Of a DNA stretch of 64,000 nt, positions 4,132-40,599 are shown piece after piece. This DNA is from Escherichia coli (GTDB taxonomy: Bacteria; Pseudomonadota; Gammaproteobacteria; Enterobacterales; Enterobacteriaceae), in the NCBI RefSeq assembly GCF_036507355.1, contig NZ_AP027877.1; one strand, given 5' to 3'. Made by a program: the position numbers and the translations under genes. The notes beneath the pieces were generated by a model, which ran no database searches, was not told where the DNA came from, and saw only the letters and a list, made by a program, of their open reading frames with translations. The first letter of the stretch is position 1. Every line of letters begins with the position of its first letter.

Positions 4132-6981
4132 TTGAAATACCTTGCTTCTTTTCGTACAACCCTGAAAGCCTCGCGCTACATGTTCAGAGCATTGGCGTTA
4201 GTGCTCTGGCTGTTGATTGCTTTTTCATCCGTTTTTTACATCGTTAATGCGTTACATCAGCGAGAATCGGAAATTCGTCAGGAATTTAATCTGAGTTCCG
4301 ATCAGGCTCAGCGCTTTATTCAACGCACCTCTGATGTGATGAAAGAGCTGAAGTACATCGCCGAAAATCGCTTATCGGCAGAAAACGGTGTGCTTTCCCC
4401 GCGTGGACGAGAAACGCAGGCGGATGTGCCTGCGTTTGAACCGCTGTTTGCCGACTCTGATTGTTCCGCAATGAGTAACACCTGGCGAGGTTCTCTGGAG
4501 TCATTGGCGTGGTTTATGCGCTACTGGCGCGATAATTTTTCTGCGGCTTACGATCTCAACCGGGTATTTTTAATCGGCAGCGATAACCTCTGCATGGCCA
4601 ATTTCGGTCTGCGTGATATGCCAGTGGAACGCGATACCGCGTTGAAAGCGTTGCATGAACGCATCAATAAATATCGAAATGCACCACAAGATGATAGCGG
4701 CAGTAACCTCTACTGGATCAGCGAAGGTCCGCGCCCTGGCGTCGGGTATTTTTACGCGTTGACGCCAGTTTATCTGGCGAACCGGTTGCAGGCGCTTTTG
4801 GGTGTCGAGCAGACCATCCGGATGGAGAATTTTTTCTTACCTGGTACGTTGCCGATGGGGGTTACCATTCTTGATGAAAATGGTCATACCCTGATTTCGC
4901 TTACCGGACCAGAAAGTAAAATTAAGGGCGATCCTCGCTGGATGCAGGAACGCTCCTGGTTTGGCTATACGGAAGGGTTCCGGGAGCTGGTGCTGAAGAA
5001 AAATCTGCCACCCTCATCGCTAAGCATCGTGTATTCGGTGCCGGTTGATAAGGTGCTGGAACGCATTCGCATGTTGATCCTTAACGCAATTTTGCTGAAT
5101 GTGCTTGCCGGAGCTGCATTGTTTACTCTCGCGCGGATGTACGAGCGACGTATTTTCATTCCGGCGGAAAGCGACGCCCTGCGACTGGAAGAACATGAGC
5201 AGTTCAATCGCAAGATTGTCGCCTCCGCGCCAGTGGGTATCTGCATTTTGCGTACCGCTGATGGCGTCAATATTTTAAGTAACGAACTGGCGCATACCTA
5301 TCTCAATATGCTTACGCATGAGGACCGCCAACGACTGACACAAATTATCTGTGGGCAGCAGGTCAATTTTGTTGATGTCCTGACCAGCAACAATACCAAT
5401 CTGCAAATCAGCTTCGTCCATTCGCGCTATCGTAATGAAAACGTGGCCATTTGTGTGCTGGTGGATGTTTCTTCGCGCGTGAAGATGGAAGAGTCGTTGC
5501 AGGAGATGGCACAAGCAGCGGAACAGGCGAGCCAGTCAAAATCGATGTTCCTTGCCACCGTCAGTCATGAGCTGCGAACGCCGCTGTATGGCATTATCGG
5601 TAACCTGGATCTTTTGCAAACCAAAGAGTTACCGAAAGGCGTCGATCGTCTGGTGACGGCAATGAACAACTCTTCCAGCCTGTTGTTGAAAATTATCAGC
5701 GATATTCTCGATTTCTCGAAGATTGAATCGGAACAGTTGAAGATCGAACCGCGTGAGTTTTCACCGCGTGAAGTGATGAACCACATCACCGCCAACTATT
5801 TACCGCTGGTGGTACGCAAGCAGTTAGGCTTGTACTGCTTTATTGAACCGGATGTGCCAGTGGCCTTAAATGGCGACCCGATGCGTTTACAGCAGGTCAT
5901 CTCCAACCTGTTGAGTAACGCCATAAAATTCACCGATACCGGCTGTATAGTTTTGCATGTCCGCGCTGATGGCGATTATCTCTCTATCCGTGTTCGCGAT
6001 ACCGGCGTGGGGATTCCGGCGAAAGAAGTGGTGCGCTTGTTTGATCCCTTCTTCCAGGTCGGAACGGGCGTACAGCGAAACTTCCAGGGGACCGGTCTGG
6101 GTCTGGCGATTTGTGAAAAACTGATCAGCATGATGGACGGCGATATCTCGGTAGATTCAGAACCGGGAATGGGCAGCCAGTTTACCGTGCGTATTCCGTT
6201 GTACGGCGCTCAGTACCCGCAGAAAAAAGGCGTGGAAGGGTTGAGTGGTAAACGCTGCTGGCTGGCGGTCCGCAATGCGTCGCTCTGTCAGTTCCTGGAA
6301 AACAGTTTGCAGCGCAGCGGCATCGTCGTAACAACATACGAAGGGCAGGAACCGACTCCCGAAGATGTGTTAATCACTGACGAGGTAGTGAGTAAAAAAT
6401 GGCAGGGCAGAGCGGTAGTGACCTTCTGTCGTCGACATATTGGTATTCCGCTGGAGAAAGCGCCAGGGGAGTGGGTACACAGTGTGGCTGCCCCGCATGA
6501 GCTACCGGCATTGTTGGCGCGTATTTATTTGATCGAGATGGAGAGCGACGATCCTGCTAACGCTCTGCCGTCGACGGACAAAGCGGTCAGCGATAATGAC
6601 GATATGATGATTCTGGTCGTGGATGATCATCCGATTAACCGACGTCTGCTGGCAGATCAGTTGGGATCGTTGGGCTATCAATGTAAAACCGCGAATGATG
6701 GCGTCGATGCGCTTAATGTACTTAGCAAGAATCATATTGATATCGTGCTTAGCGACGTCAACATGCCAAATATGGATGGTTACCGCTTGACGCAACGCAT
6801 TCGTCAGTTGGGACTGACGTTGCCGGTAATCGGAGTAACTGCTAATGCGTTGGCTGAAGAGAAGCAGCGGTGTCTGGAGTCCGGTATGGACAGCTGCCTC
6901 TCGAAGCCGGTAACGCTGGATGTGATAAAACAGACGCTGACGGTATATGCCGAGAGGGTCAGGAAATCGCGGGAATCGTAG
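4132..6981 (+). CDS. rcsC: hybrid sensor histidine kinase RcsC (949 aa)
   Basis: ORF track; HisKA H-box (SHELRTPL), HATPase and C-terminal receiver domain; convergent with rcsB. Confidence 0.93.
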   Translation: MKYLASFRTTLKASRYMFRALALVLWLLIAFSSVFYIVNALHQRESEIRQEFNLSSDQAQRFIQRTSDVMKELKYIAENRLSAENGVLSPRGRETQADVPAFEPLFADSDCSAMSNTWRGSLESLAWFMRYWRDNFSAAYDLNRVFLIGSDNLCMANFGLRDMPVERDTALKALHERINKYRNAPQDDSGSNLYWISEGPRPGVGYFYALTPVYLANRLQALLGVEQTIRMENFFLPGTLPMGVTILDENGHTLISLTGPESKIKGDPRWMQERSWFGYTEGFRELVLKKNLPPSSLSIVYSVPVDKVLERIRMLILNAILLNVLAGAALFTLARMYERRIFIPAESDALRLEEHEQFNRKIVASAPVGICILRTADGVNILSNELAHTYLNMLTHEDRQRLTQIICGQQVNFVDVLTSNNTNLQISFVHSRYRNENVAICVLVDVSSRVKMEESLQEMAQAAEQASQSKSMFLATVSHELRTPLYGIIGNLDLLQTKELPKGVDRLVTAMNNSSSLLLKIISDILDFSKIESEQLKIEPREFSPREVMNHITANYLPLVVRKQLGLYCFIEPDVPVALNGDPMRLQQVISNLLSNAIKFTDTGCIVLHVRADGDYLSIRVRDTGVGIPAKEVVRLFDPFFQVGTGVQRNFQGTGLGLAICEKLISMMDGDISVDSEPGMGSQFTVRIPLYGAQYPQKKGVEGLSGKRCWLAVRNASLCQFLENSLQRSGIVVTTYEGQEPTPEDVLITDEVVSKKWQGRAVVTFCRRHIGIPLEKAPGEWVHSVAAPHELPALLARIYLIEMESDDPANALPSTDKAVSDNDDMMILVVDDHPINRRLLADQLGSLGYQCKTANDGVDALNVLSKNHIDIVLSDVNMPNMDGYRLTQRIRQLGLTLPVIGVTANALAEEKQRCLESGMDSCLSKPVTLDVIKQTLTVYAERVRKSRES

Positions 6982-7174
6982 GACGGATAAGGTGTTTATG
7001 CCGCATCTGGCATTCAGTGCAAATGCCAGATGCGACGCTGACGCGTCTTATCTGGCCTACTTTAATGTAATCTGTTGAAATAATGGGAATCGTAGGACGG
7101 ATAAGGCGTTTACGCCGCATCCGGCAATCGGTGCAAATGCCAGATAAGACACAAACGCGTCTTATCTGGCCTAC
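6971..7174. repeat. REP/BIME cluster: two ~90-bp units in tandem (6971-7060 and 7085-7174), each carrying REP palindromes (GCCGGATGCGGCGTAAACGCCTTATCCGGCCTAC-like)
   Basis: Direct reading; units about 88 percent identical; first unit overlaps the last codons and TAG stop of rcsC. Confidence 0.8.
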
Positions 7175-10831: not shown

Positions 10832-10924
10832 AAAAAAAACCGGATGCGAGGCATCCGGTTGAAATAGGGGTAAACAGACATTCAGAAATGAATGACGGTA
10901 ATAAATAAAGTTAATGATGATAGC
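10832..10924 (-). ncRNA. micF: MicF antisense sRNA
   Basis: Minus strand reads GCTATCATCATTAACTTTATTTATTACCGTCATTCATTTCTGAATGTCTGTTTACCCCTATTTCAACCGGATGCCTCGCATCCGGTTTTTTTT with terminal hairpin and U-run; divergent from ompC. Confidence 0.85.
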
Positions 10925-11243
10925 GGGAGTTATTCTAGTTGCGAGTGAAGGTTTTGTTTTGACATTCAGTGCTGTCAAATACTTAAGAATAAGTTATTGA
11001 TTTTAACCTTGAATTATTATTGCTTGATGTTAGGTGCTTATTTCGCCATTCCGCAATAATCTTAAAAAGTTCCCTTGCATTTACATTTTGAAACATCTAT
11101 AGCGATAAATGAAACATCTTAAAAGTTTTAGTATCATATTCGTGTTGGATTATTCTGCATTTTTGGGGAGAATGGACTTGCCGACTGATTAATGAGGGTT
11201 AATCAGTATGCAGTGGCATAAAAAAGCAAATAAAGGCATATAA

Positions 11244-18899: not shown

Positions 18900-19035
18900 G
18901 ATGTGCCACATCCGGCATGGTATGCCGGATGTGGCGTATGCTGATAAGACGCGCCAGCGTCGCATCAGGCAACCGGCTCGGGCGTTAGATGCGGCGTAAC
19001 CGCCTTATCCAACCTATGGGGTGCCGCACTTCACG
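18900..19035. repeat. REP element cluster between mqo and eco
   Basis: Imperfect palindromes of the GCCGGATG...CATCCGGC / CGCCTTATCC type read directly. Confidence 0.7.
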
Positions 19036-19529: not shown

Positions 19530-19787
19530 TTTTTGCTTTCCTTCTTCATTTATAGGTTTGCACCGATGATGTCGCTGAAGGTTAACATATTCATCAGATT
19601 TATTAATTTGCTTTATGAATAACTTAAAGAATATTCAGACAATTTTACCTGCTCTTTTAGTGTTAAATTCTGATGAGAGAACAAACCAGCAGAAATATCT
19701 CTGGTGAATTAATCGCTATATAAATATATTTATAACCATTTGAAATGTGAGCAAAAGCCCGTTTTTGCCACGCTTCCCGCCACTCTT

Positions 19788-19822
19788 TTGATCCTGCTAC
19801 AGGTTTTACCTCGATCGGGGTA
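19788..19822 (+). promoter_or_regulatory. napF promoter control region: degenerate FNR-like site (TTGAT-N4-CTACA, 19788-19801) and NarP/NarL 7-2-7 heptamer pair (TACCTCG-AT-CGGGGTA, 19807-19822)
   Basis: Motifs read directly; the two centres are 20 bp apart, as expected for the known -64.5/-44.5 napF architecture. Confidence 0.55.
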
Positions 19823-19935
19823 TGCATCTTTGACACATCCTTTAATATCTTAGCGGCTATAAAAATGGCTTATTAATTATGCGGTTTATTTGGTCGCTCT
19901 CAATTTTCAGAGCGCGTTAATGATGGAAGGTCAAT

Positions 19936-20430
19936 GTGAAGATTGATGCATCCCGTCGGGGCATACTCACTGGTCGCTGGCGCAAAGCCAGTAACGGTAT
20001 CCGTCCGCCCTGGTCCGGTGATGAATCTCATTTTCTGACCCATTGCACCCGCTGCGACGCCTGTATTAATGCTTGTGAAAACAACATTCTGCAACGCGGC
20101 GCGGGCGGCTATCCGAGCGTTAATTTCAAAAATAACGAGTGCAGCTTCTGTTACGCCTGCGCGCAGGCTTGCCCCGAATCGCTATTTTCTCCGCGCCACA
20201 CCAGGGCCTGGGATTTGCAGTTCACCATTGGGGACGCGTGCCTGGCGTATCAGTCAGTTGAATGCCGCCGCTGTCAGGATAGCTGTGAGCCAATGGCAAT
20301 TATCTTTCGCCCGACGCTCTCCGGGATCTACCAGCCGCAACTTAATAGCCAACTTTGCAACGGATGTGGAGCATGTGCAGCCAGCTGTCCGGTATCAGCC
20401 ATAACTGCGGAGTATCTCCATGCACACTAA
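19936..20430 (+). CDS. napF: ferredoxin-type protein NapF (164 aa)
   Basis: ORF track; multiple CxxCxxCxxxCP 4Fe-4S motifs. Confidence 0.92.
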   Translation: MKIDASRRGILTGRWRKASNGIRPPWSGDESHFLTHCTRCDACINACENNILQRGAGGYPSVNFKNNECSFCYACAQACPESLFSPRHTRAWDLQFTIGDACLAYQSVECRRCQDSCEPMAIIFRPTLSGIYQPQLNSQLCNGCGACAASCPVSAITAEYLHAH

Positions 20431-20683
20431 CTGGCAAGTTTGCAGCCTGGTCGTGCAGGCCAAAAGCGAACGAATTTCAGACATCAGCACCCAACTGAAC
20501 GCCTTTCCCGGCTGTGAAGTTGCTGCCAGCGACGCGCCGAGCGGTCAGTTGATTGTGGTGGTGGAAGCAGAAGACAGCGAAACGCTGATCCAAACCATTG
20601 AGTCAGTACGCAACGTAGAGGGCGTGCTGGCGGTGTCGCTGGTTTATCACCAGCAGGAAGAGCAAGGTGAGGAAACACCATGA
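20420..20683 (+). CDS. napD: NapA chaperone NapD (87 aa)
   Basis: ORF track; overlaps napF end and napA start. Confidence 0.9.
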
Positions 20684-23166
20684 AACTCAGTCGTCGTAGC
20701 TTTATGAAAGCTAACGCCGTTGCGGCCGCTGCGGCGGCTGCCGGTCTCAGCGTGCCGGGCGTTGCCCGCGCCGTTGTTGGTCAGCAGGAAGCCATCAAAT
20801 GGGATAAAGCGCCGTGCCGTTTCTGCGGTACTGGTTGCGGCGTTCTGGTCGGAACGCAGCAGGGGCGTGTGGTGGCCTGTCAGGGCGACCCGGACGCACC
20901 GGTTAACCGTGGCCTGAACTGCATTAAGGGCTATTTCCTGCCCAAGATCATGTACGGTAAAGACCGTTTGACGCAGCCGCTGCTGCGTATGAAAAACGGT
21001 AAATATGACAAAGAAGGCGAATTTACCCCAATCACCTGGGATCAGGCCTTCGATGTGATGGAAGAGAAATTCAAAACCGCCCTGAAAGAAAAAGGGCCGG
21101 AATCGATCGGTATGTTCGGTTCTGGTCAGTGGACTATCTGGGAAGGTTATGCCGCGTCCAAGCTGTTTAAAGCGGGCTTCCGTTCGAACAACATCGACCC
21201 GAACGCGCGTCACTGTATGGCGTCGGCAGTAGTTGGCTTTATGCGTACCTTTGGTATGGATGAGCCGATGGGCTGCTATGACGACATCGAGCAGGCTGAC
21301 GCGTTTGTGCTGTGGGGCGCAAACATGGCGGAGATGCACCCGATCCTCTGGTCACGCATCACTAACCGTCGTCTCTCTAACCAGGACGTCACCGTGGCGG
21401 TGCTTTCAACCTACCAGCATCGTAGCTTCGAGCTGGCGGATAACGGCATCATCTTTACGCCGCAATCTGACCTGGTGATCCTGAACTACATCGCCAACTA
21501 TATCATTCAAAACAATGCGATAAATCAGGACTTCTTCAGCAAGCACGTTAACCTGCGCAAAGGGGCGACGGACATCGGCTACGGTTTACGTCCGACCCAT
21601 CCGCTGGAAAAAGCAGCGAAGAATCCGGGTTCTGACGCCTCCGAACCGATGAGCTTCGAAGATTACAAAGCCTTCGTTGCTGAGTATACGCTGGAAAAAA
21701 CCGCTGAAATGACCGGCGTGCCGAAAGACCAGTTAGAACAACTGGCGCAGCTGTATGCCGATCCGAACAAGAAAGTCATCTCCTACTGGACGATGGGCTT
21801 CAACCAGCATACTCGTGGCGTGTGGGCCAACAACCTGGTCTACAACCTGCACCTGCTGACCGGCAAAATTTCCCAGCCGGGTTGCGGTCCGTTCTCCCTG
21901 ACCGGGCAGCCTTCCGCGTGTGGTACTGCGCGTGAAGTGGGCACCTTTGCCCACCGTCTGCCTGCGGACATGGTGGTGACTAACGAGAAACATCGTGATA
22001 TCTGCGAGAAGAAGTGGAATATCCCGAGCGGCACCATTCCGGCGAAAATCGGTCTGCATGCTGTAGCACAAGACCGTGCGCTGAAAGACGGCAAGCTGAA
22101 TGTTTACTGGACCATGTGTACCAACAACATGCAGGCCGGGCCGAACATCAATGAAGAGCGTATGCCGGGCTGGCGCGATCCGCGCAACTTCATCATCGTC
22201 TCCGATCCGTATCCGACAGTCAGTGCGCTGGCCGCCGACTTGATCCTGCCGACCGCAATGTGGGTAGAGAAAGAGGGCGCTTACGGTAACGCCGAACGCC
22301 GTACTCAGTTCTGGCGTCAGCAGGTACAGGCGCCAGGCGAAGCGAAATCGGACCTCTGGCAGTTAGTCCAGTTCTCCCGCCGCTTCAAAACTGAAGAAGT
22401 ATGGCCGGAAGAGCTGCTGGCGAAGAAACCGGAACTGCGTGGCAAAACGCTGTACGAAGTTCTGTATGCCACCCCCGAAGTGAGCAAATTCCCGGTATCC
22501 GAACTGGCGGAAGATCAGCTGAACGATGAATCCCGCGAGCTGGGCTTCTATCTGCAAAAAGGGCTGTTCGAAGAGTACGCATGGTTTGGTCGCGGTCACG
22601 GTCACGATCTCGCGCCGTTCGATGACTACCACAAAGCGCGCGGTCTGCGCTGGCCGGTGGTGAACGGTAAAGAAACGCAGTGGCGTTACAGCGAAGGTAA
22701 CGACCCGTACGTGAAAGCGGGCGAAGGCTATAAGTTCTACGGTAAACCGGATGGCAAAGCGGTGATCTTCGCACTGCCGTTCGAACCGGCGGCGGAAGCA
22801 CCGGATGAAGAGTACGACCTGTGGCTCTCTACCGGACGCGTTCTGGAGCACTGGCACACCGGCAGTATGACTCGCCGTGTGCCGGAACTGCACCGCGCCT
22901 TCCCGGAAGCGGTCTTGTTTATTCACCCGCTGGATGCGAAAGCGCGCGATCTGCGTCGTGGCGACAAAGTGAAAGTGGTTTCTCGCCGTGGCGAAGTGAT
23001 CTCGATTGTCGAAACGCGCGGTCGTAACCGCCCGCCGCAGGGCCTGGTGTACATGCCGTTCTTCGACGCCGCACAGCTGGTTAACAAACTGACGCTGGAC
23101 GCGACCGATCCGCTCTCGAAAGAGACGGACTTCAAGAAGTGCGCGGTCAAACTGGAGAAGGTGTAA
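20680..23166 (+). CDS. napA: periplasmic nitrate reductase catalytic subunit NapA (828 aa)
   Basis: ORF track; twin-arginine signal (SRRSFMK), molybdopterin oxidoreductase. Confidence 0.95.
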
Positions 23167-23172
23167 GCCATT

Positions 23173-23868
23173 ATGTCCCGGTCAGCGAAACCTCAAAATG
23201 GTCGCCGCCGCTTTCTGCGCGATGTTGTTCGCACAGCAGGCGGGCTGGCTGCCGTGGGTGTGGCGCTGGGGTTACAACAGCAAACCGCACGCGCATCTGG
23301 CGTGCGGTTGCGCCCGCCCGGAGCCATAAACGAGAACGCCTTTGCCAGTGCCTGTGTGCGTTGTGGTCAGTGTGTTCAGGCTTGCCCTTACGACACCTTA
23401 AAACTGGCGACGCTGGCCTCTGGTCTGTCGGCGGGCACGCCATATTTTGTCGCACGGGATATTCCTTGCGAAATGTGTGAGGACATTACGTGCGCCAAAG
23501 TGTGCCCGAGCGGTGCGCTGGATCGTGAGATCGAATCGATCGACGACGCGCGGATGGGGCTGGCGGTGCTGGTGGACCAGGAAAACTGTCTCAACTTTCA
23601 GGGGCTGCGCTGCGATGTTTGTTATCGCGAATGCCCGAAAATTGATGAGGCTATCACCCTGGAGCTGGAGCGCAATACGCGTACCGGTAAGCACGCCCGC
23701 TTTCTGCCGACGGTTCACAGCGACGCCTGTACCGGTTGCGGTAAGTGCGAAAAAGTGTGCGTGCTGGAACAACCGGCAATCAAGGTGTTACCGCTGTCAC
23801 TGGCGAAAGGGGAGTTAGGTCACCATTACCGCTTCGGCTGGCTGGAGGGGAACAATGGCAAATCGTAA
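23173..23868 (+). CDS. napG: ferredoxin-type protein NapG (231 aa)
   Basis: ORF track; Tat signal and 4Fe-4S cysteine clusters. Confidence 0.92.
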
Positions 23869-24718
23869 ACGTGACGCCGGGCGCGAGGCGCTGGAGAAAA
23901 AAGGCTGGTGGCGCAGTCACCGTTGGCTGGTGTTACGTCGCCTTTGTCAGTTCTTCGTGCTGGGGATGTTTTTGAGCGGTCCGTGGTTTGGTGTGTGGAT
24001 CTTGCACGGCAACTACAGCAGTAGCCTGTTATTCGACACCGTTCCGCTGACCGATCCGCTGATGACGCTGCAAAGTCTTGCCAGTGGTCATCTGCCTGCC
24101 ACGGTGGCGTTGACCGGTGCGGTGATTATCACCGTGCTCTACGCCCTGGCAGGAAAGCGATTATTTTGCAGCTGGGTCTGCCCGCTGAACCCGATTACCG
24201 ACTTAGCGAACTGGTTACGCAGGCGCTTTGACCTCAATCAGTCTGCGACGATCCCTCGCCACATTCGCTACGTACTGTTGGTGGTCATTCTGCTGGGATC
24301 GGCCTTAACTGGCACGCTCATCTGGGAATGGATCAACCCCGTTTCTCTGATGGGGCGTAGCCTGGTAATGGGCTTCGGCAGCGGCGCGCTGCTTATTCTC
24401 GCGCTGTTTTTATTTGATCTACTGGTCGTTGAACACGGCTGGTGCGGGCACATTTGTCCGGTTGGCGCGCTGTATGGCGTGCTGGGTAGCAAAGGTGTGA
24501 TTACCGTTGCGGCCAGCGATCGGCAGAAATGTAACCGCTGTATGGATTGTTTTCATGTTTGCCCGGAACCGCATGTGCTACGTGCCCCGGTGCTGGATGA
24601 ACAAAGCCCGGTGCAGGTCACCAGCCGCGATTGCATGACGTGCGGTCGCTGCGTGGATGTCTGTTCTGAGGATGTATTTACAATAACTACACGATGGAGT
24701 TCGGGAGCGAAATCATGA
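23855..24718 (+). CDS. napH: membrane ferredoxin NapH (287 aa)
   Basis: ORF track; TM helices and C-terminal Fe-S motifs; 14-nt overlap with napG. Confidence 0.92.
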
Positions 24719-25164
24719 AAAGCCATGACCTGAAGAAAGCGCTGTATCAATGGACGGCGATGCTGGCCCTGGTGGTAAGCGGCGCGGTTTGGGCGGCTAA
24801 TGGCGTCGATTTTAGCCAGTCGCCGGAAGTATCCGGGACGCAGGAAGGGGCCATTCGGATGCCAAAAGAGCAGGATCGGATGCCGCTGAACTATGTGAAT
24901 CAGCCGCCAATGATCCCGCATAGCGTTGAAGGTTATCAGGTAACGACCAATACCAACCGCTGCTTGCAGTGCCACGGTGTCGAAAGCTATCGCACCACTG
25001 GCGCGCCGCGTATCAGTCCTACTCACTTTATGGACAGCGACGGCAAAGTGGGCGCGGAAGTGGCTCCGCGTCGTTATTTCTGTCTGCAATGTCACGTACC
25101 GCAGGCCGATACCGCGCCAATCGTGGGGAATACCTTTACCCCATCAAAAGGTTACGGGAAATAA
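24715..25164 (+). CDS. napB: dihaem cytochrome c NapB (149 aa)
   Basis: ATG at 24715 gives MKSHDLKK...; two CxxCH haem motifs; the track ORF begins 7 codons earlier; overlaps napH stop (ATGA). Confidence 0.9.
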   Translation: MKSHDLKKALYQWTAMLALVVSGAVWAANGVDFSQSPEVSGTQEGAIRMPKEQDRMPLNYVNQPPMIPHSVEGYQVTTNTNRCLQCHGVESYRTTGAPRISPTHFMDSDGKVGAEVAPRRYFCLQCHVPQADTAPIVGNTFTPSKGYGK

Positions 25165-25173
25165 GAGGTTATT

Positions 25174-25776
25174 ATGGGAAATTCTGACCGTAAGCCTGGT
25201 CTGATTAAGCGCCTGTGGAAATGGTGGCGTACCCCCAGCCGTCTGGCGCTGGGGACGCTGCTGTTGATCGGTTTTGTCGGCGGCATCGTCTTCTGGGGCG
25301 GCTTTAACACTGGGATGGAAAAAGCCAATACCGAAGAGTTCTGCATTAGCTGCCACGAAATGCGTAACACGGTGTATCAGGAATACATGGATTCCGTGCA
25401 CTACAACAACCGTAGCGGCGTCCGTGCGACCTGTCCGGATTGTCACGTTCCGCACGAGTTTGTGCCGAAGATGATACGCAAGCTCAAAGCAAGTAAAGAG
25501 CTGTATGGTAAAATTTTTGGCGTTATTGACACGCCGCAGAAATTTGAAGCTCATCGTCTGACGATGGCACAGAATGAGTGGCGGCGCATGAAGGACAATA
25601 ACTCGCAGGAGTGCCGTAACTGTCACAACTTCGAGTATATGGATACAACCGCCCAGAAATCGGTTGCCGCGAAGATGCATGACCAGGCGGTGAAAGATGG
25701 GCAAACCTGTATTGATTGCCATAAAGGGATAGCGCACAAGCTGCCCGATATGCGTGAAGTCGAGCCAGGTTTTTAA
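25174..25776 (+). CDS. napC: tetrahaem cytochrome c NapC (200 aa)
   Basis: ORF track; four CxxCH motifs, N-terminal membrane anchor. Confidence 0.93.
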   Translation: MGNSDRKPGLIKRLWKWWRTPSRLALGTLLLIGFVGGIVFWGGFNTGMEKANTEEFCISCHEMRNTVYQEYMDSVHYNNRSGVRATCPDCHVPHEFVPKMIRKLKASKELYGKIFGVIDTPQKFEAHRLTMAQNEWRRMKDNNSQECRNCHNFEYMDTTAQKSVAAKMHDQAVKDGQTCIDCHKGIAHKLPDMREVEPGF

Positions 25777-25788
25777 CAGGGTTATTGC

Positions 25789-26412
25789 GTGGGTATGCTT
25801 GAAGCCAGAGAGTTACTTTGTGAGCGGGATGAACGAACCTTATTTAGTGGCTTGTCATTTACGCTGAACGCAGGAGAGTGGATACAAATCACCGGTAGCA
25901 ACGGCGCGGGGAAGACAACGCTTCTCCGTTTGCTGACGGGGTTGTCTCGCCCTGACGCAGGCGAGGTTCTCTGGCAAGGGCAGCCCTTGCATCAGGTACG
26001 CGATAGCTACCATCAAAACCTGTTATGGATAGGCCATCAGCCGGGGATCAAAACCCGGCTGACGGCGTTAGAAAATCTGCACTTTTATCATCGCGATGGC
26101 GATACCGCACAATGTCTGGAAGCCCTGGCGCAGGCCGGGCTTGCCGGATTCGAAGATATTCCGGTAAATCAACTTTCTGCCGGGCAACAACGCCGCGTCG
26201 CTTTAGCACGTCTGTGGCTGACCCGTGCCACGTTATGGATCCTCGACGAGCCTTTTACCGCGATTGACGTTAACGGCGTCGATCGTCTGACCCAGCGTAT
26301 GGCGCAGCATACGGAGCAGGGGGGGATTGTGATTCTGACTACCCACCAGCCGCTCAACGTTGCTGAAAGTAAAATTCGCCGCATTTCACTGACGCAAACG
26401 AGGGCCGTATGA
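25789..26412 (+). CDS. ccmA: haem exporter ATPase CcmA (207 aa)
   Basis: ORF track; Walker [13 protein letters not shown] signature. Confidence 0.93.
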
Positions 26413-27071
26413 TGTTCTGGCGCATTTTCCGTCTTGAGCTGCGCGTAGCGTTTCGCCATAGCGCCGAAATCGCCAACCCGCTGTGGTTCTTCCTGATTGT
26501 AATTACCCTTTTTCCGCTCAGTATCGGTCCGGAGCCGCAACTGCTGGCGCGTATTGCACCGGGCATTATCTGGGTTGCTGCGCTGCTTTCATCCTTGCTG
26601 GCGCTGGAACGACTGTTCCGTGACGATTTGCAGGACGGCAGTCTTGAACAATTGATGTTGTTGCCGTTACCCTTGCCCGCCGTTGTGCTGGCGAAGGTGA
26701 TGGCGCACTGGATGGTAACCGGTCTGCCGTTACTCATCCTTTCGCCCCTGGTAGCAATGCTACTGGGAATGGATGTTTATGGCTGGCAAGTGATGGCGTT
26801 AACGCTACTGCTGGGAACGCCTACGCTTGGCTTTCTTGGTGCACCGGGCGTGGCGCTGACAGTGGGACTTAAGCGCGGTGGTGTGCTGCTCAGCATACTG
26901 GTGTTACCGCTGACTATCCCATTACTCATCTTTGCCACCGCCGCGATGGACGCGGCTTCCATGCATTTGCCCGTTGACGGGTATCTGGCAATTTTAGGCG
27001 CGTTGCTGGCAGGCACCGCGACATTAAGTCCTTTTGCGACGGCGGCAGCGTTACGAATCAGCATTCAATAA
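26409..27071 (+). CDS. ccmB: haem exporter membrane protein CcmB (220 aa)
   Basis: ORF track; 4-nt overlap with ccmA. Confidence 0.92.
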
Positions 27072-27112
27072 CGCTGGATTACTGATTTTTGTTCGAGTCT
27101 GGTATCGAAACT

Positions 27113-27850
27113 ATGTGGAAAACACTGCATCAACTGGCGATCCCACCACGGCTGTATCAAATCTGTGGCTGGTTTATACCGTGGCTGGCAATTGCCAGTG
27201 TGGTCGTGCTTACCGTCGGCTGGATCTGGGGATTCGGCTTTGCTCCGGCTGATTATCAGCAGGGAAATAGCTACCGCATTATCTACCTGCATGTGCCTGC
27301 GGCGATCTGGTCGATGGGCATTTATGCATCAATGGCGGTGGCGGCGTTTATTGGCCTTGTCTGGCAGATGAAAATGGCCAACCTGGCGGTGGCAGCGATG
27401 GCCCCCATTGGTGCCGTGTTTACCTTTATTGCCCTGGTTACCGGCTCTGCATGGGGAAAACCGATGTGGGGCACCTGGTGGGTATGGGATGCACGTCTGA
27501 CTTCTGAACTGGTGCTGCTGTTTTTGTATGTGGGTGTGATTGCCCTGTGGCACGCCTTCGACGACCGCCGTCTGGCGGGCCGTGCGGCAGGTATCCTGGT
27601 GCTGATTGGCGTGGTGAATCTGCCGATTATTCATTACTCCGTTGAGTGGTGGAACACCCTGCATCAGGGATCAACGCGAATGCAGCAAAGTATCGATCCT
27701 GCGATGCGTTCGCCGCTGCGCTGGTCGATTTTTGGCTTCTTGCTGCTGTCTGCCACGCTGACGCTGATGCGGATGCGTAATTTAATTTTACTGATGGAAA
27801 AACGCCGTCCGTGGGTGAGTGAACTGATACTGAAAAGAGGCCGTAAATGA
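27113..27850 (+). CDS. ccmC: haem exporter protein CcmC (245 aa)
   Basis: ATG at 27113 gives MWKTLHQLAIP...; WxxxxW-type tryptophan-rich motif (WGTWWVWD); the track ORF begins 8 codons upstream. Confidence 0.92.
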   Translation: MWKTLHQLAIPPRLYQICGWFIPWLAIASVVVLTVGWIWGFGFAPADYQQGNSYRIIYLHVPAAIWSMGIYASMAVAAFIGLVWQMKMANLAVAAMAPIGAVFTFIALVTGSAWGKPMWGTWWVWDARLTSELVLLFLYVGVIALWHAFDDRRLAGRAAGILVLIGVVNLPIIHYSVEWWNTLHQGSTRMQQSIDPAMRSPLRWSIFGFLLLSATLTLMRMRNLILLMEKRRPWVSELILKRGRK

Positions 27851-28056
27851 CCCCTGCATTTGCTTCCTGGAATGAATTTTTCGCAATGGGCGGTTACGCC
27901 TTTTTTGTCTGGCTGGCGGTGGTGATGACCGTTATTCCGCTGGTGGTTTTGGTCGTGCACTCGGTGATGCAGCATCGCGCAATTCTGCGTGGTGTGGCGC
28001 AACAGCGGGCGCGTGAGGCGCGTTTACGTGCTGCGCAACAGCAGGAGGCTGCATGA
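27847..28056 (+). CDS. ccmD: haem exporter protein CcmD (69 aa)
   Basis: ORF track; small single-TM protein; overlapping start/stop. Confidence 0.9.
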
Positions 28057-28532
28057 ATATTCGCCGTAAAAACCGCTTGTGGATTGCCTGTGCCGTGTTG
28101 GCAGGGCTGGCGCTGACTATCGGTCTGGTGCTATATGCGCTGCGCTCGAATATCGATCTCTTTTATACGCCGGGGGAAATTCTCTACGGCAAGCGTGAAA
28201 CTCAGCAGATGCCGGAAGTCGGTCAGCGTCTGCGCGTTGGCGGGATGGTGATGCCGGGTAGTGTGCAGCGCGATCCCAATTCGCTGAAAGTGACCTTCAC
28301 CATTTACGACGCTGAAGGCTCAGTGGATGTCTCTTACGAAGGCATTTTGCCGGATCTGTTCCGTGAAGGGCAGGGCGTTGTGGTGCAGGGCGAGCTGGAA
28401 AAAGGCAATCATATCCTCGCGAAAGAAGTGCTGGCGAAACATGATGAAAATTATACGCCGCCAGAAGTTGAGAAAGCGATGGAAGCTAACCATCGTCGCC
28501 CGGCGAGTGTTTATAAGGACCCAGCATCATGA
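28053..28532 (+). CDS. ccmE: haem chaperone CcmE (159 aa)
   Basis: ORF track; conserved haem-binding His region. Confidence 0.92.
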
Positions 28533-30472
28533 TGCCGGAAATTGGAAACGGGCTGCTGTGCCTGGCGTTAGGGATTGCGCTGCTGCTGTCCGTGTATCCG
28601 CTATGGGGCGTGGCGCGCGGAGATGCGCGCATGATGGCGTCTTCCCGCTTGTTTGCCTGGCTGCTGTTTATGTCTGTGGCTGGCGCATTTCTGGTGCTGG
28701 TCAATGCTTTCGTGGTCAACGACTTTACCGTCACCTATGTTGCCAGCAACTCCAATACCCAGCTTCCGGTGTGGTATCGCGTGGCGGCTACCTGGGGCGC
28801 GCATGAAGGCTCGCTACTGCTGTGGGTGCTGCTGATGAGCGGCTGGACCTTTGCGGTGGCGATTTTTAGTCAGCGTATTCCGCTGGATATTGTGGCCCGC
28901 GTATTGGCGATAATGGGGATGGTCAGTGTCGGCTTTTTGCTGTTCATTCTCTTTACCTCTAACCCATTCTCACGCACGCTGCCGAACTTCCCGATTGAAG
29001 GGCGCGATCTTAACCCGCTGTTACAGGATCCGGGGCTGATCTTCCATCCGCCTCTGCTTTATATGGGGTACGTGGGTTTCTCGGTGGCGTTTGCTTTTGC
29101 CATTGCTTCTTTGTTGAGCGGGCGTCTGGACAGCACTTATGCGCGTTTTACTCGTCCGTGGACACTGGCAGCGTGGATCTTTCTGACGCTCGGCATTGTG
29201 CTCGGTTCCGCATGGGCCTATTACGAACTCGGCTGGGGCGGCTGGTGGTTCTGGGATCCGGTAGAAAACGCCTCATTTATGCCGTGGTTGGTGGGGACTG
29301 CGCTGATGCACTCACTGGCGGTCACTGAACAACGCGCCAGCTTCAAAGCGTGGACATTATTGCTGGCAATCAGTGCCTTCTCGTTGTGTCTGTTGGGGAC
29401 TTTCCTCGTGCGTTCCGGCGTGCTGGTATCGGTACACGCGTTTGCGTCTGATCCGGCGCGCGGTATGTTTATCCTCGCCTTTATGGTGCTGGTGATTGGC
29501 GGTTCGTTGCTGCTGTTTGCCGCGCGTGGACACAAAGTTCGCTCACGCGTAAACAATGCGCTGTGGTCGCGGGAATCTCTGCTGTTAGCGAACAACGTTT
29601 TGCTGGTCGCCGCGATGCTGGTGGTGTTACTGGGGACGCTGCTGCCGCTGGTGCACAAGCAACTGGGACTGGGCAGCATTTCGATTGGCGAACCGTTCTT
29701 CAACACCATGTTTACCTGGCTGATGGTGCCGTTTGCGCTACTGCTTGGTGTCGGTCCTCTGGTGCGCTGGGGACGCGATCGACCGCGTAAAATCCGCAAT
29801 TTATTGATTATCGCCTTCATCTCTACGCTGGTGCTGTCGCTGCTGTTGCCGTGGCTGTTCGAAAGCAAAGTTGTGGCGATGACGGTGCTCGGCCTGGCAA
29901 TGGCCTGCTGGATTGCGGTGCTGGCAATTGCAGAAGCGGCGCTGCGTATTTCACGCGGCACGAAAACCACCTTCAGCTATTGGGGGATGGTGGCGGCTCA
30001 CCTGGGGCTGGCAGTGACAATTGTTGGTATTGCTTTCAGTCAGAACTACAGCGTTGAGCGTGATGTGCGCATGAAGTCCGGCGATAGCGTCGATATTCAT
30101 GAATATCGCTTCACCTTCCGTGATGTTAAAGAGGTGACTGGTCCGAACTGGCGCGGCGGTGTGGCGACTATCGGCGTAACGCGAGATGGCAAGCCGGAAA
30201 CGGTGCTGTATGCGGAAAAACGTTATTACAACACTGCCGGGTCGATGATGACCGAAGCGGCGATTGACGGCGGCATCACCCGTGACCTGTACGCGGCACT
30301 CGGTGAAGAACTGGAAAACGGTGCCTGGGCTGTTCGTCTTTACTACAAACCGTTTGTTCGCTGGATCTGGGCGGGCGGGCTGATGATGGCGCTGGGCGGG
30401 CTGCTGTGCCTGTTTGATCCTCGCTATCGTAAGCGCGTGAACCCGCAGAAAACTGCGCCGGAGGCTGTATGA
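28529..30472 (+). CDS. ccmF: cytochrome c haem lyase subunit CcmF (647 aa)
   Basis: ORF track; polytopic membrane protein. Confidence 0.93.
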
Positions 30473-31026
30473 AGCGCAAAGTATTGTTAATTCCTTTGAT
30501 TATCTTCCTGGCGATTGCCGCGGCGCTGCTGTGGCAGTTGGCGCGTAATGCCGAAGGGGATGATCCGACCAATCTGGAATCGGCGCTCATTGGCAAGCCT
30601 GTGCCGAAGTTTCGTCTCGAATCACTGGACAATCCGGGGCAGTTTTATCAGGCGGATGTGCTGACTCAGGGCAAACCAGTGCTGCTTAACGTCTGGGCGA
30701 CCTGGTGTCCGACCTGCCGTGCGGAACATCAATATCTGAATCAGCTTTCTGCGCAGGGCATCCGCGTGGTCGGCATGAACTATAAAGACGATCGCCAGAA
30801 GGCAATCAGCTGGCTGAAAGAGCTGGGCAATCCTTACGCGCTAAGCCTGTTTGATGGCGATGGCATGTTAGGGCTGGATCTCGGTGTCTATGGCGCGCCA
30901 GAAACGTTTCTTATTGACGGCAACGGCATCATTCGCTATCGCCATGCGGGCGATCTGAATCCTCGCGTCTGGGAAGAAGAGATCAAGCCGCTGTGGGAGA
31001 AATACAGTAAGGAGGCCGCACAATGA
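30469..31026 (+). CDS. ccmG: thiol:disulfide interchange protein CcmG/DsbE (185 aa)
   Basis: ORF track; thioredoxin motif WCPTC. Confidence 0.93.
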   Translation: MKRKVLLIPLIIFLAIAAALLWQLARNAEGDDPTNLESALIGKPVPKFRLESLDNPGQFYQADVLTQGKPVLLNVWATWCPTCRAEHQYLNQLSAQGIRVVGMNYKDDRQKAISWLKELGNPYALSLFDGDGMLGLDLGVYGAPETFLIDGNGIIRYRHAGDLNPRVWEEEIKPLWEKYSKEAAQ

Positions 31027-32075
31027 GGTTTTTATTGGGCGTGCTGATGCTGATGATCTCCGGCTCAGCGCTGGCGACCATCGACGTGTTGCAGTTTAAA
31101 GATGAAGCACAGGAACAACAGTTCCGTCAGCTCACTGAAGAACTGCGCTGCCCGAAATGCCAGAACAACAGCATTGCCGATTCCAACTCGATGATTGCCA
31201 CCGACCTGCGCCAGAAAGTGTATGAACTGATGCAGGAAGGTAAAAGTAAAAAAGAGATTGTCGATTATATGGTGGCGCGTTACGGCAACTTCGTCACTTA
31301 CGATCCGCCGTTAACGCCGCTGACCGTGCTGCTGTGGGTGCTTCCGGTAGTGGCTATTGGCATTGGCGGTTGGGTCATATACGCCCGCTCGCGGCGTCGG
31401 GTACGCGTGGTGCTGGAAGCGTTTCCTGAACAAAGCGTGCCGGAAGGTAAGCGTGCCGGATATGTTGTTTATCTGCCGGGTATTGTGGTGGCGTTAATTG
31501 TGGCTGGCGTCAGCTACTACCAGACTGGCAATTATCAGCAGGTGAAAATCTGGCAGCAGGCCACGGCACAGGTTCCGGCGTTGCTGGACAGGGCGCTGGA
31601 TCCGAAAGCCGATCCGCTCAACGAAGAAGAGATGTCGCGCCTTGCGCTGGGGATGCGTACTCAACTGCAAAAAAATCCGGGAGATATAGAAGGTTGGATT
31701 ATGTTGGGCCGCGTTGGCATGGCGCTGGGTAACGCCAGTATCGCCACCGATGCATACGCTACTGCGTATCGCCTCGATCCGAAAAACAGCGATGCCGCAC
31801 TGGGTTATGCTGAAGCGTTGACACGTTCATCTGATCCCAACGACAACCGCCTCGGCGGCGAACTGCTGCGCCAGTTGGTGAGAACGGACCATAGCAATAT
31901 TCGTGTGTTAAGCATGTATGCGTTTAATGCCTTTGAGCAGCAGCGATTTGGCGAAGCCGTTGCCGCGTGGGAGATGATGTTGAAACTCTTACCTGCCAAC
32001 GATACTCGCCGTGCGGTGATTGAACGTAGTATCGCGCAGGCGATGCAACATTTGTCGCCGCAGGAGAGTAAATAA
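31023..32075 (+). CDS. ccmH: cytochrome c maturation protein CcmH, fused CcmH/CcmI type (350 aa)
   Basis: ORF track; RCPKC motif and C-terminal TPR-like region. Confidence 0.92.
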   Translation: MRFLLGVLMLMISGSALATIDVLQFKDEAQEQQFRQLTEELRCPKCQNNSIADSNSMIATDLRQKVYELMQEGKSKKEIVDYMVARYGNFVTYDPPLTPLTVLLWVLPVVAIGIGGWVIYARSRRRVRVVLEAFPEQSVPEGKRAGYVVYLPGIVVALIVAGVSYYQTGNYQQVKIWQQATAQVPALLDRALDPKADPLNEEEMSRLALGMRTQLQKNPGDIEGWIMLGRVGMALGNASIATDAYATAYRLDPKNSDAALGYAEALTRSSDPNDNRLGGELLRQLVRTDHSNIRVLSMYAFNAFEQQRFGEAVAAWEMMLKLLPANDTRRAVIERSIAQAMQHLSPQESK

Positions 32076-32124
32076 AAAGTGGCCCGATGGTGATTCCATC
32101 AGGCCAGACTGATGACAAAGTGCG

Positions 32125-32245
32125 CTTAGTTTATGCCGGATGCGGCGTGAACGCCTTATCCGGCCTACACAATCGTGTGAATTCAATAAATTGATCGATC
32201 CGCGTAGGCCTGATAAGCGTAGCGCATCAGGCAGTTTTGCGTTTG
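32125..32245. repeat. REP element pair between ccmH and narP
   Basis: GCCGGATGCGGCGTGAACGCCTTATCCGGCCTAC and inverted partner read directly. Confidence 0.75.
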
Positions 32246-32285
32246 TCATAAATCTCAGCCCGATGATAAATCCATCGGGCTATTT

Positions 32286-32933
32286 TTATTGTGCCCCGCG
32301 TTGTTGCAGGAACAGAATGGTGGCTGCCACGCGTGAGCGGACATTGAGTTTGCGCAGCAGATTGCGAATATGTACTTTTACTGTCTGCTCGGAAATATTC
32401 AACACCGAGGCAATCTGTTTATTTGACAGCCCCTGTGCCAGCTCGTGCAGAACATCCAGCTCGCGCTCCGTCAGCACGCTGAAGGGATCTTCTTCCGCGC
32501 CAAACATTTCACGTTCATGTAAGTACTGATTGACGCGTTCGCTAAAGACTTTGCTGCCTTTCGCTCCGGCACGAATCGCTTCCAGCAACACTTCCGGGTC
32601 GCTGTCTTTCAACAGATAACCGTCTGCGCCTGCGTCTATCAGCGCAAAGACATCGCTGGAGGCATCTGATACGGTCAGGATAATAATTTGCGCGGTAACG
32701 CCATCCCTGCGCAAGGCATTGAGGGTATCCAGGCCACTCATACCTTTCATATTGAGATCCAGCAAGATCACGTCGATATCCAGTCTATTCGCCAGATCGA
32801 TAGCACTCGCGCCGTCGCCCGCTTCGGCGACCACTTCAAAGCCAGGATCAAGCTCCAGTAACTGACGAACACCGCGTCGCATAAGTGGATGATCATCCAC
32901 AATCATCACCTGAAAAGGCGTTGCTTCAGGCAT
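32286..32933 (-). CDS. narP: nitrate/nitrite response regulator NarP (215 aa)
   Basis: ATG at 32931-32933 gives MPEATPFQVMIVDDHP...; receiver plus LuxR HTH; the track ORF extends 10 codons upstream. Confidence 0.93.
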   Translation of the reverse strand: MPEATPFQVMIVDDHPLMRRGVRQLLELDPGFEVVAEAGDGASAIDLANRLDIDVILLDLNMKGMSGLDTLNALRRDGVTAQIIILTVSDASSDVFALIDAGADGYLLKDSDPEVLLEAIRAGAKGSKVFSERVNQYLHEREMFGAEEDPFSVLTERELDVLHELAQGLSNKQIASVLNISEQTVKVHIRNLLRKLNVRSRVAATILFLQQRGAQ

Positions 32934-36720: not shown

Positions 36721-36797
36721 TGGTCGGCACGAGAGGATTTGAACCTCCGACCCCCGACACCCCATGACGGTGCGCTACCAGGCTGCGCTACGTGCCG
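36721..36797 (-). tRNA. proL: tRNA-Pro (anticodon GGG)
   Basis: Minus strand reads CGGCACGTAGCGCAGCCTGGTAGCGCACCGTCATGGGGTGTCGGGGGTCGGAGGTTCAAATCCTCTCGTGCCGACCA (77 nt, cloverleaf, TPsiC-loop GGTTCAAATCC, 3' CCA). Confidence 0.9.

Positions 36798-40206: not shown

Positions 40207-40599
<393 letters not shown>

Follow-up and report, generated by a model that had tools for sequence, protein, structure and literature searches.

Known operons and identity of the locus

Published tables give napFDAGHBC-ccmABCDEFGH of Escherichia coli as one unit of 15 genes. Anaerobic expression from the napF promoter was described as being under the control of Fnr (PMC10937671) and of Fnr and NarP (PMC9262595). 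The closest described counterparts of its gene junctions are the translationally coupled E. coli pairs hyfHI, astDB, ydbH/ynbE, plus menDH, which are co-directional and have a 4-nucleotide (nt) ATGA overlap and an embedded Shine-Dalgarno sequence; the nap and ccm junctions are absent from the pairs tested in those studies, and the likeness is an analogy (Huber et al. 2019, 2023). Among five native E. coli ATGA pairs tested, four were coupled by termination-reinitiation, and coupling dropped steeply with distance and was nearly gone by ~20 nt (PMC6728339, PMC10666635). Here we describe the corresponding locus in a 64,000-nt stretch of E. coli DNA (contig NZ_AP027877.1 of assembly GCF_036507355.1), designated as the window. 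Positions 19936–32075 of the window contain fifteen back-to-back plus-strand open reading frames (ORFs), napFDAGHBC-ccmABCDEFGH, which a first-pass annotation had interpreted as translationally coupled across a 12-kb transcript.

Between eco/yojO and narP, all on the same strand, the gene order is napF-D-A-G-H-B-C-ccmA-B-C-D-E-F-G-H, and the flanks (mqo, eco, and yojO upstream and the convergent narP downstream) are those of K-12 and O157. The K-12 operon (b2208–b2194) aligned to the cluster without gaps at 98.45% nucleotide identity and has the same 15 genes in the same order, with the same lengths, start and stop codons, and flanking genes. Summed over the 15 proteins, the two differ by 12 amino-acid substitutions; in addition, the NarP/NarL site has one substitution and ccmF a more divergent patch that is almost wholly synonymous. 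There is no structural difference. We are nearly certain that the segment is the canonical E. coli operon, also referred to as aeg-46.5. The first-pass annotation had named the genes correctly, as indicated by the K-12 comparison and by NCBIfam models. The cluster consists of two modules placed head-to-tail behind a napF promoter controlled by Fnr, NarP, and ModE. The Nap module supplies the periplasmic nitrate reductase with its quinol-oxidizing and assembly proteins, and the system I Ccm module the cytochrome c maturation machinery that the heme proteins NapB and NapC require.

A megablast search of 5426 complete E. coli genomes matched the nap-ccm stretch in 5425, and at least 80% of it, with annotated nap and ccm genes, in 5417. 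The genome annotations of the stretch name napF, napD, napA, napG, napH, napB, napC, ccmA–F, dsbE/ccmG, and ccmH. The match length was exactly 12,140 nt in almost all genomes of a sample drawn from the top to the bottom of the ranked E. coli matches, and the best identity over the cluster was at most 99.1% among the complete genomes compared. Two records (NZ_CP027555.1 and NZ_OZ369348.1) aligned over 12,139 nt of the 12,140-nt cluster. This implies a 1-nt indel somewhere in nap-ccm, possibly reflecting a frameshift in one of the genes or a mistake in the assembly. The operon is not novel, and the value of the description is mostly that of annotation: Nap and the cytochrome c maturation system are both intact in this E. 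coli strain.

Geometry of the gene junctions

With 68 non-coding positions in 12,140 nt, the cluster is a textbook case of compact junctions in an operon. Literal ATGA overlaps of -4 nt are present at eight of the 14 junctions, namely napD/A, napH/B, ccmA/B, ccmC/D, ccmD/E, ccmE/F, ccmF/G, and ccmG/H. Those of ccmA/B (26409–26414) and ccmE/F (28529–28534) read ATGATG, so that a -1 (TGATG) start is also offered beside the -4 start. Longer overlaps are found at napF/D (-11 nt) and napG/H (-14 nt). The remaining junctions are spacers of +6 nt (napA/G), +9 nt (napB/C), +12 nt (napC/ccmA), and +41 nt (ccmB/C; 27072–27112, plus strand), the last being the only real gap in the cluster. The distances were re-extracted from the sequence, and the coordinates and junctions listed in the first-pass annotation proved exact. 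Its description of almost every junction as an overlap or a gap below 15 base pairs (bp) holds, the exception being ccmB/C, which it had left unlisted together with the 11-nt overlap of napF/D.

These distances are already published for K-12. Supplementary file 3 of PMC10666635, in its K-12 entries for nap-ccm, lists the pair distances singly, and those from napF/D to ccmF/G are the same as in the window; the ccmG/H distance in the K-12 annotation is likewise -4. In the entries of the same study that summarize 1,695 genomes, the typical distance (median or commonest) is -4 for NapD-NapA and CcmD-CcmE, -1/-4 for CcmC-CcmD, -1 for CcmE-CcmF (the value under which the cross-genome table files this pair), and +11 for NapB-NapC (PMC10666635). 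It is therefore already in print that, across species, NapD-NapA and the Ccm pairs tend to overlap by 4 or 1 nt.

The K-12 census comprises 2,987 co-directional pairs, of which 820 lie at -8 to +10 nt and 1,630 beyond +20 nt, and the commonest distance is -4 (PMC10666635). Ten of the 14 nap-ccm junctions fall within this -8 to +10 nt range, the others being napF/D (-11), napG/H (-14), napC/ccmA (+12), and ccmB/C (+41). The cluster is enriched relative to all co-directional pairs (820/2987; binomial P = 7.8e-4) and not unusual relative to closely spaced pairs only (at most +20 nt; 820/1357; P = 0.18). Because of the latter value, the tightness reflects being an operon, not an unusual operon, and the pattern is what is usually seen in operons encoding membrane complexes. 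Other operons in the K-12 equivalent of the same 64 kb overlap as well: atoS/C (-4), atoD/A (-1), atoA/E (-4), ada/alkB (-1), fruB/K (-1), yejB/E (-1), and psuK/G (-13).

A tblastn search with CcmE against plasmid and chromid records led to annotated ccm loci in several genera, where the junctions were read. The overlap geometry of ccm (-4/-8/-1) is kept down to ~40% CcmE identity in alpha-, beta-, and gammaproteobacteria. Citrobacter freundii has the pattern of the window except for napC/ccmA (+20) and ccmB/C (+76). Plasmid pHG1 of Cupriavidus necator H16 carries napEDABC directly followed by ccmABCDEFGHI on one strand, like the nap-to-ccm order of the window. It differs in having napE, in lacking napF, napG, and napH, and in encoding CcmH and CcmI as separate proteins. 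Its nap junctions are loose (+75, -20, +31, +21, and +75), while its ccm junctions form an unbroken series of six at -4 (ccmA/B to ccmF/G), followed by -8 at ccmG/H and -4 at ccmH/ccmI; ccmB/ccmC is accordingly -4 there and +41 in the window. The ccm junctions are -4, +116, -4, -4, +1, -8, -8, and -4 in Legionella, -4, -4, +174, -4, -4, and +4 in Xanthomonas, and -4, -4, and -1 in Ruegeria. In the four readable gammaproteobacterial loci, ccmB/C is a spacer: +41 in the window, +76 in Citrobacter, +116 in Legionella, and ~170 in Aeromonas (from tblastn).

Translation signals and probable coupling

Within the 20 nt upstream of the start, 13 of the 15 genes can form an anti-Shine-Dalgarno duplex of -5.8 to -12.1 kcal/mol, while only 8% of the background positions in the cluster reach -6 kcal/mol. 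The exceptions are ccmC (-3.0 kcal/mol, the weakest) and ccmA (-3.3 kcal/mol, with a GTG start), which are the genes after the two longest spacers. At all ten overlapping junctions the Shine-Dalgarno sequence lies within the upstream gene at -5.8 to -12.1 kcal/mol, an arrangement expected for coupled genes. The predicted opening energy of the initiation regions averaged 8.6 kcal/mol compared with 10.8 kcal/mol at random cluster positions (P = 0.02). The regions predicted to be most open are those of napC (the top one), napG, and ccmA, all after spacers, and the overlapping starts of napH, napB, ccmG, and ccmH are predicted to be no more open than the background. The modeled energies agree weakly with initiation that is independent after spacers and ribosome-assisted at overlaps.

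In both modules, the majority of downstream genes start inside the upstream gene or at most ~10 nt from its stop codon, with the Shine-Dalgarno sequence embedded in the upstream gene. A ribosome ending the upstream gene could therefore reinitiate on the next one, or it could make the initiation region accessible to a new ribosome. Such coupling would link the output of subunits that join into complexes (NapD/A, NapG/H, CcmA/B, CcmC/D/E, and CcmF/G/H), and continuous ribosome cover would shield the long mRNA from Rho-dependent polarity. At napC/ccmA and ccmB/ccmC, translation would restart afresh. Independent initiation would also be allowed at napA/napG (+6) and napB/napC (+9), where the initiation regions are predicted to be unusually accessible. 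Coupling at nap-ccm, its mechanism, and its purpose are inferred. E. coli pairs encoding complex subunits show a 4.5-fold enrichment of short overlaps (PMC10666635), a tendency that NapGH, CcmAB, CcmCDE, and CcmFGH appear to fit.

By analogy with these pairs, termination-reinitiation coupling is likely within napD-A, napH-B, ccmA-B, and ccmC-D-E-F-G-H. It is plausible, with less certainty, at the two longer overlaps (-11 and -14) and the two shortest spacers (+6 and +9). At ccmB/C it is unlikely because the spacer is +41 nt and a distance of ~20 nt almost abolishes reinitiation. The coupling chain is probably broken at both napC/ccmA and ccmB/ccmC. The earlier interpretation was reasonable in that the geometry is of a kind coupled in other E. 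coli pairs. It was overstated as a continuous 12-kb chain, in view of the +41 spacer of ccmB/C, the +12 spacer, GTG start, and weak Shine-Dalgarno sequence at napC/ccmA, and the nap-free ccm loci elsewhere.

Several observations speak against coupling within a single transcript. One of the five tested ATGA pairs, bioBF, was uncoupled, and thus geometry alone is no proof (PMC6728339, PMC10666635). The -11 and -14 overlaps are outside the -8 to +10 nt range taken as predictive in PMC10666635. Almost all downstream genes carry a Shine-Dalgarno sequence of their own, and with the predicted accessible starts independent initiation throughout is possible. As for transcription, ccm is reportedly also transcribed from a ccmA promoter within napC, mapped by Tanapongpipat et al. 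in 1998; a consensus promoter scan of the cluster does not detect it. If such a promoter is active, there would be one long transcript and a nested ccm transcript, and the independent promoters that the first-pass annotation had named as refuting its interpretation would in part be present.

An explanation to which we give about an even chance is that nap and ccm are two expression units that merely abut. The ccm genes would then be expressed largely from their own promoter in or near napC, ccmA and ccmC would be translated independently, and coupling would be confined to short blocks. The two junctions with weak signals, napC/ccmA (+12, GTG, -3.3 kcal/mol) and ccmB/ccmC (+41, -3.0 kcal/mol), are consistent with this explanation, as are the reported ccmA promoter and the occurrence of ccm without nap in Legionella (with sohB upstream), Xanthomonas, Aeromonas, and Vibrio natriegens. 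The napC/ccmA spacer is also variable (+12 in E. coli, +20 in Citrobacter, and +75 in Cupriavidus). On the other hand, no terminator was detected between napC and ccmA, 12 nt is too short for a terminator and a promoter, and 194 of the 201 E. coli pairs at +9 to +12 nt are co-transcribed (PMC10666635). The nap-ccm linkage moreover recurs in Citrobacter and in Cupriavidus pHG1. Two units would complement the one operon with blocks of coupled translation more than exclude it.

The overlaps could also be a by-product of genome compaction and of start and stop codon drift with no role in coupling, ATGA and TGATG being the cheapest arrangements. Distances of -4 and -1 are indeed the commonest genome-wide in nearly all prokaryotes (PMC10666635), no significantly tighter spacing is seen in the cluster than among other close E. 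coli pairs (P = 0.18), and bioBF overlaps yet is uncoupled. We consider neutral compaction unlikely, however, since the -4/-8/-1 geometry is kept at the same junctions in alpha-, beta-, and gammaproteobacteria at ~40–50% CcmE identity and embedded Shine-Dalgarno sequences are strongly enriched. The 4.5-fold enrichment of short overlaps among complex-subunit pairs and the coupling of four of the five tested ATGA pairs also argue against it. A speculative extension of block-wise coupling is an obligatory ribosome relay along the five ATGA junctions that follow one another between ccmC and ccmH, in which one initiation at the poor ccmC start would set the output of the six maturation proteins downstream. 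In such a relay, the conserved spacer of ccmB/ccmC would deliberately uncouple the CcmAB ATPase from the CcmCDE heme-loading unit.

Promoter region and transcription unit

The napF upstream region is identical to that of K-12 at 296 of 300 nt. Three regulatory sites were read in it on the plus strand: a ModE-type site CGCTATATA...TATAACC (19714–19737), an Fnr half-site region TTGATcctgCTACA (19788–19801) identical to K-12, and a NarP/NarL 7-2-7 site TACCTCG-AT-CGGGGTA (19807–19822). The site definitions follow the work of Darwin and Stewart and of Gunsalus. The centers of the Fnr and NarP/NarL sites are 20 bp apart with Fnr upstream, which matches the K-12 layout of -64.5 and -44.5. With the two centers at these positions, napF transcription would start near 19859. 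The center of the ModE-type site is ~133 bp upstream of this putative P1 start, in agreement with the napF control region of K-12. By sequence, the region thus has the Fnr, NarP/NarL, and ModE sites at the spacing of the operon. The K-12 NarP/NarL site TACCCCG-AT-CGGGGTA is a perfect palindrome, and the window has one substitution in it, T for C at 19811. The altered heptamer still falls under the consensus TACYYMT.

The first-pass annotation had proposed internal terminators or promoters as the features that would split the cluster. No convincing internal terminator was found: 20 terminator-like sites were present in the cluster compared with 16.4 ± 4.0 in shuffled sequences, and in no case did a strong stem come together with a good T-run. 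It is only after ccmH that strong hairpins with T-runs are present. The lack of a credible internal terminator, spacers of at most 41 nt, and the published listing as one unit are indirect evidence for co-transcription of the 15 genes. The consensus scan gave seven promoter-like sites in the cluster compared with 9.6 ± 3.0 in shuffles, and the single plus-strand match inside the cluster is at the ccmA/ccmB junction (9 of 12 consensus matches). Literature text searches returned nothing relevant for E. coli on a ccmA promoter or an internal promoter, and nap and ccm go unmentioned in the SMRT-Cappable-seq supplements.

3′ end and the ccmH–narP spacer

The spacer between ccmH and narP is 210 bp long (32076–32285) and contains two near-identical GC-rich hairpins flanking a pair of repetitive extragenic palindromic (REP) elements of the bacterial interspersed mosaic element (BIME) type. 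The hairpin adjoining the ccmH stop codon (32080–32106) carries a minus-strand T-run and would be the terminator on the narP side. The other hairpin, followed by ATTTTTATT on the plus strand (32257–32290), is beside the narP stop codon and is the likely intrinsic terminator of nap-ccm. Because the plus-strand T-run belongs to the narP-side hairpin and the minus-strand T-run to the ccmH-side hairpin, the nap-ccm transcript likely ends near 32290, ~200 nt past ccmH.

The spacer is polymorphic. It is 210 bp in the window and in K-12, and 35 bp in O157:H7 TR01, where a single hairpin lies between an A-run and a T-run. The long form is present in 1504 of the 5426 complete E. coli genomes and the short form in most others. 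With the crossed T-runs of the long form, the transcripts of nap-ccm and narP, which converge, would share ~200 nt of overlap. If true, the overlap could feed back on NarP, the activator of the operon itself. We hold the two speculative ideas, an obligatory ribosome relay from ccmC to ccmH and a convergent overlap with feedback on NarP, to be improbable.

Individual genes and their products

All 15 ORFs have the K-12 length, start codon, and stop codon, with 0–2 amino-acid changes per protein, and 14 of the 15 proteins exceed the curated NCBIfam cut-offs for the named family. The claim that all genes are intact is borne out by these comparisons. All genes are on the plus strand.

In the Nap module, napF (19936–20430) has a GTG start and encodes a ferredoxin-type protein of 164 residues that shows no difference from K-12, contains three CxxCxxCxxxC motifs, and matches the TIGR00402 equivalog at 248 bits (cut-off, 102). 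The product of napD (20420–20683) is the chaperone of the NapA signal peptide (NF007840 equivalog, 167.8 bits; cut-off, 113). The catalytic molybdoenzyme subunit NapA (20680–23166) scores 1655 bits with TIGR01706 (cut-off, 931) and has a twin-arginine leader (SRRSFM) and an N-terminal [4Fe-4S] motif of the CxxCxxxC type (CRFCGTGC). It is followed by the ferredoxin-type protein NapG (23173–23868; NF007012, 411 bits; cut-off, 269) and the quinol dehydrogenase ferredoxin subunit NapH (23855–24718; NF007013, 470 bits; cut-off, 234). Ferredoxin cysteine motifs were found in NapF, NapG, and NapH. The diheme cytochrome c subunit NapB (24715–25164; NF008609, 326 bits; cut-off, 230) has two CxxCH motifs, and the tetraheme quinol dehydrogenase NapC (25174–25776; NF007906, 463 bits; cut-off, 349) has four, as expected for a complete Nap system.

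In the Ccm module, ccmA (25789–26412, GTG start) encodes an ATP-binding cassette (ABC) ATPase with the Walker A motif GSNGAGKT (NF010061, 332 bits; cut-off, 195), and ccmB (26409–27071) matches TIGR01190 at 317 bits (cut-off, 156). The heme-handling permease CcmC (27113–27850; TIGR01191, 282 bits; cut-off, 186) contains WGTWWVWD. CcmD (27847–28056; TIGR03141, 67 bits; cut-off, 26) is followed by the heme chaperone CcmE (28053–28532; NF009635, 322 bits; cut-off, 264), in which His130 is part of HDENY. The heme lyase subunit CcmF (28529–30472; TIGR00353, 1016 bits; cut-off, 569) contains WGGWWFWD, the second tryptophan-rich WWD motif of the module besides that of CcmC. The thiol:disulfide oxidoreductase CcmG/DsbE (30469–31026; NF011941, 422 bits; cut-off, 359) has the CPTC motif. 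CcmH (31023–32075) is of the fused CcmH-CcmI type, with 350 residues as in K-12 and a CxxC motif (CPKC) within LRCPKC. Its sole NCBIfam match is the related NrfF model, below the cut-off, and 348 of its 350 residues are identical to K-12 CcmH, the other two being substitutions. CcmA to CcmH are thus all present with their characteristic motifs. Together, the intact ORFs, the family matches, and the cofactor and catalytic motifs give good sequence-level support to the prediction that periplasmic nitrate reduction and system I cytochrome c maturation are functional.

Alternative starts at TTG 27089 for ccmC and ATG 24694 for napB were rejected, since the annotated starts match K-12. The ATG start of ccmC is also backed by an Aeromonas tblastn alignment that begins at residue 1. 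The five longest antisense ORFs (180–249 residues) and a 129-residue ORF after ccmH had no Pfam match and were regarded as spurious.

Sequence divergence and RNA features of the window

Divergence is distributed as a mosaic along the cluster. Compared with O157 TR01, there are three differences in the first 3.5 kb (19936–23435) and 10–18 per 500 nt across ccmF (28436–30435). Compared with K-12, divergence peaks at 26 per 500 nt at 29936–30435; nearly all of these changes are synonymous, and CcmF has one amino-acid change. The mosaic looks like an ordinary recombination patchwork. A search of Rfam showed no RNA family inside the nap-ccm cluster. Outside it, matches were located at 6981–7171, 10832–10925, 18939–19014, 36724–36797, and 40513–40538; they comprise naRNA4 (REP-derived, three matches), MicF (minus strand), a tRNA at the proL position, and, upstream of rplY, the leader of ribosomal protein L25, all of which are expected in this region of the E. 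coli chromosome.

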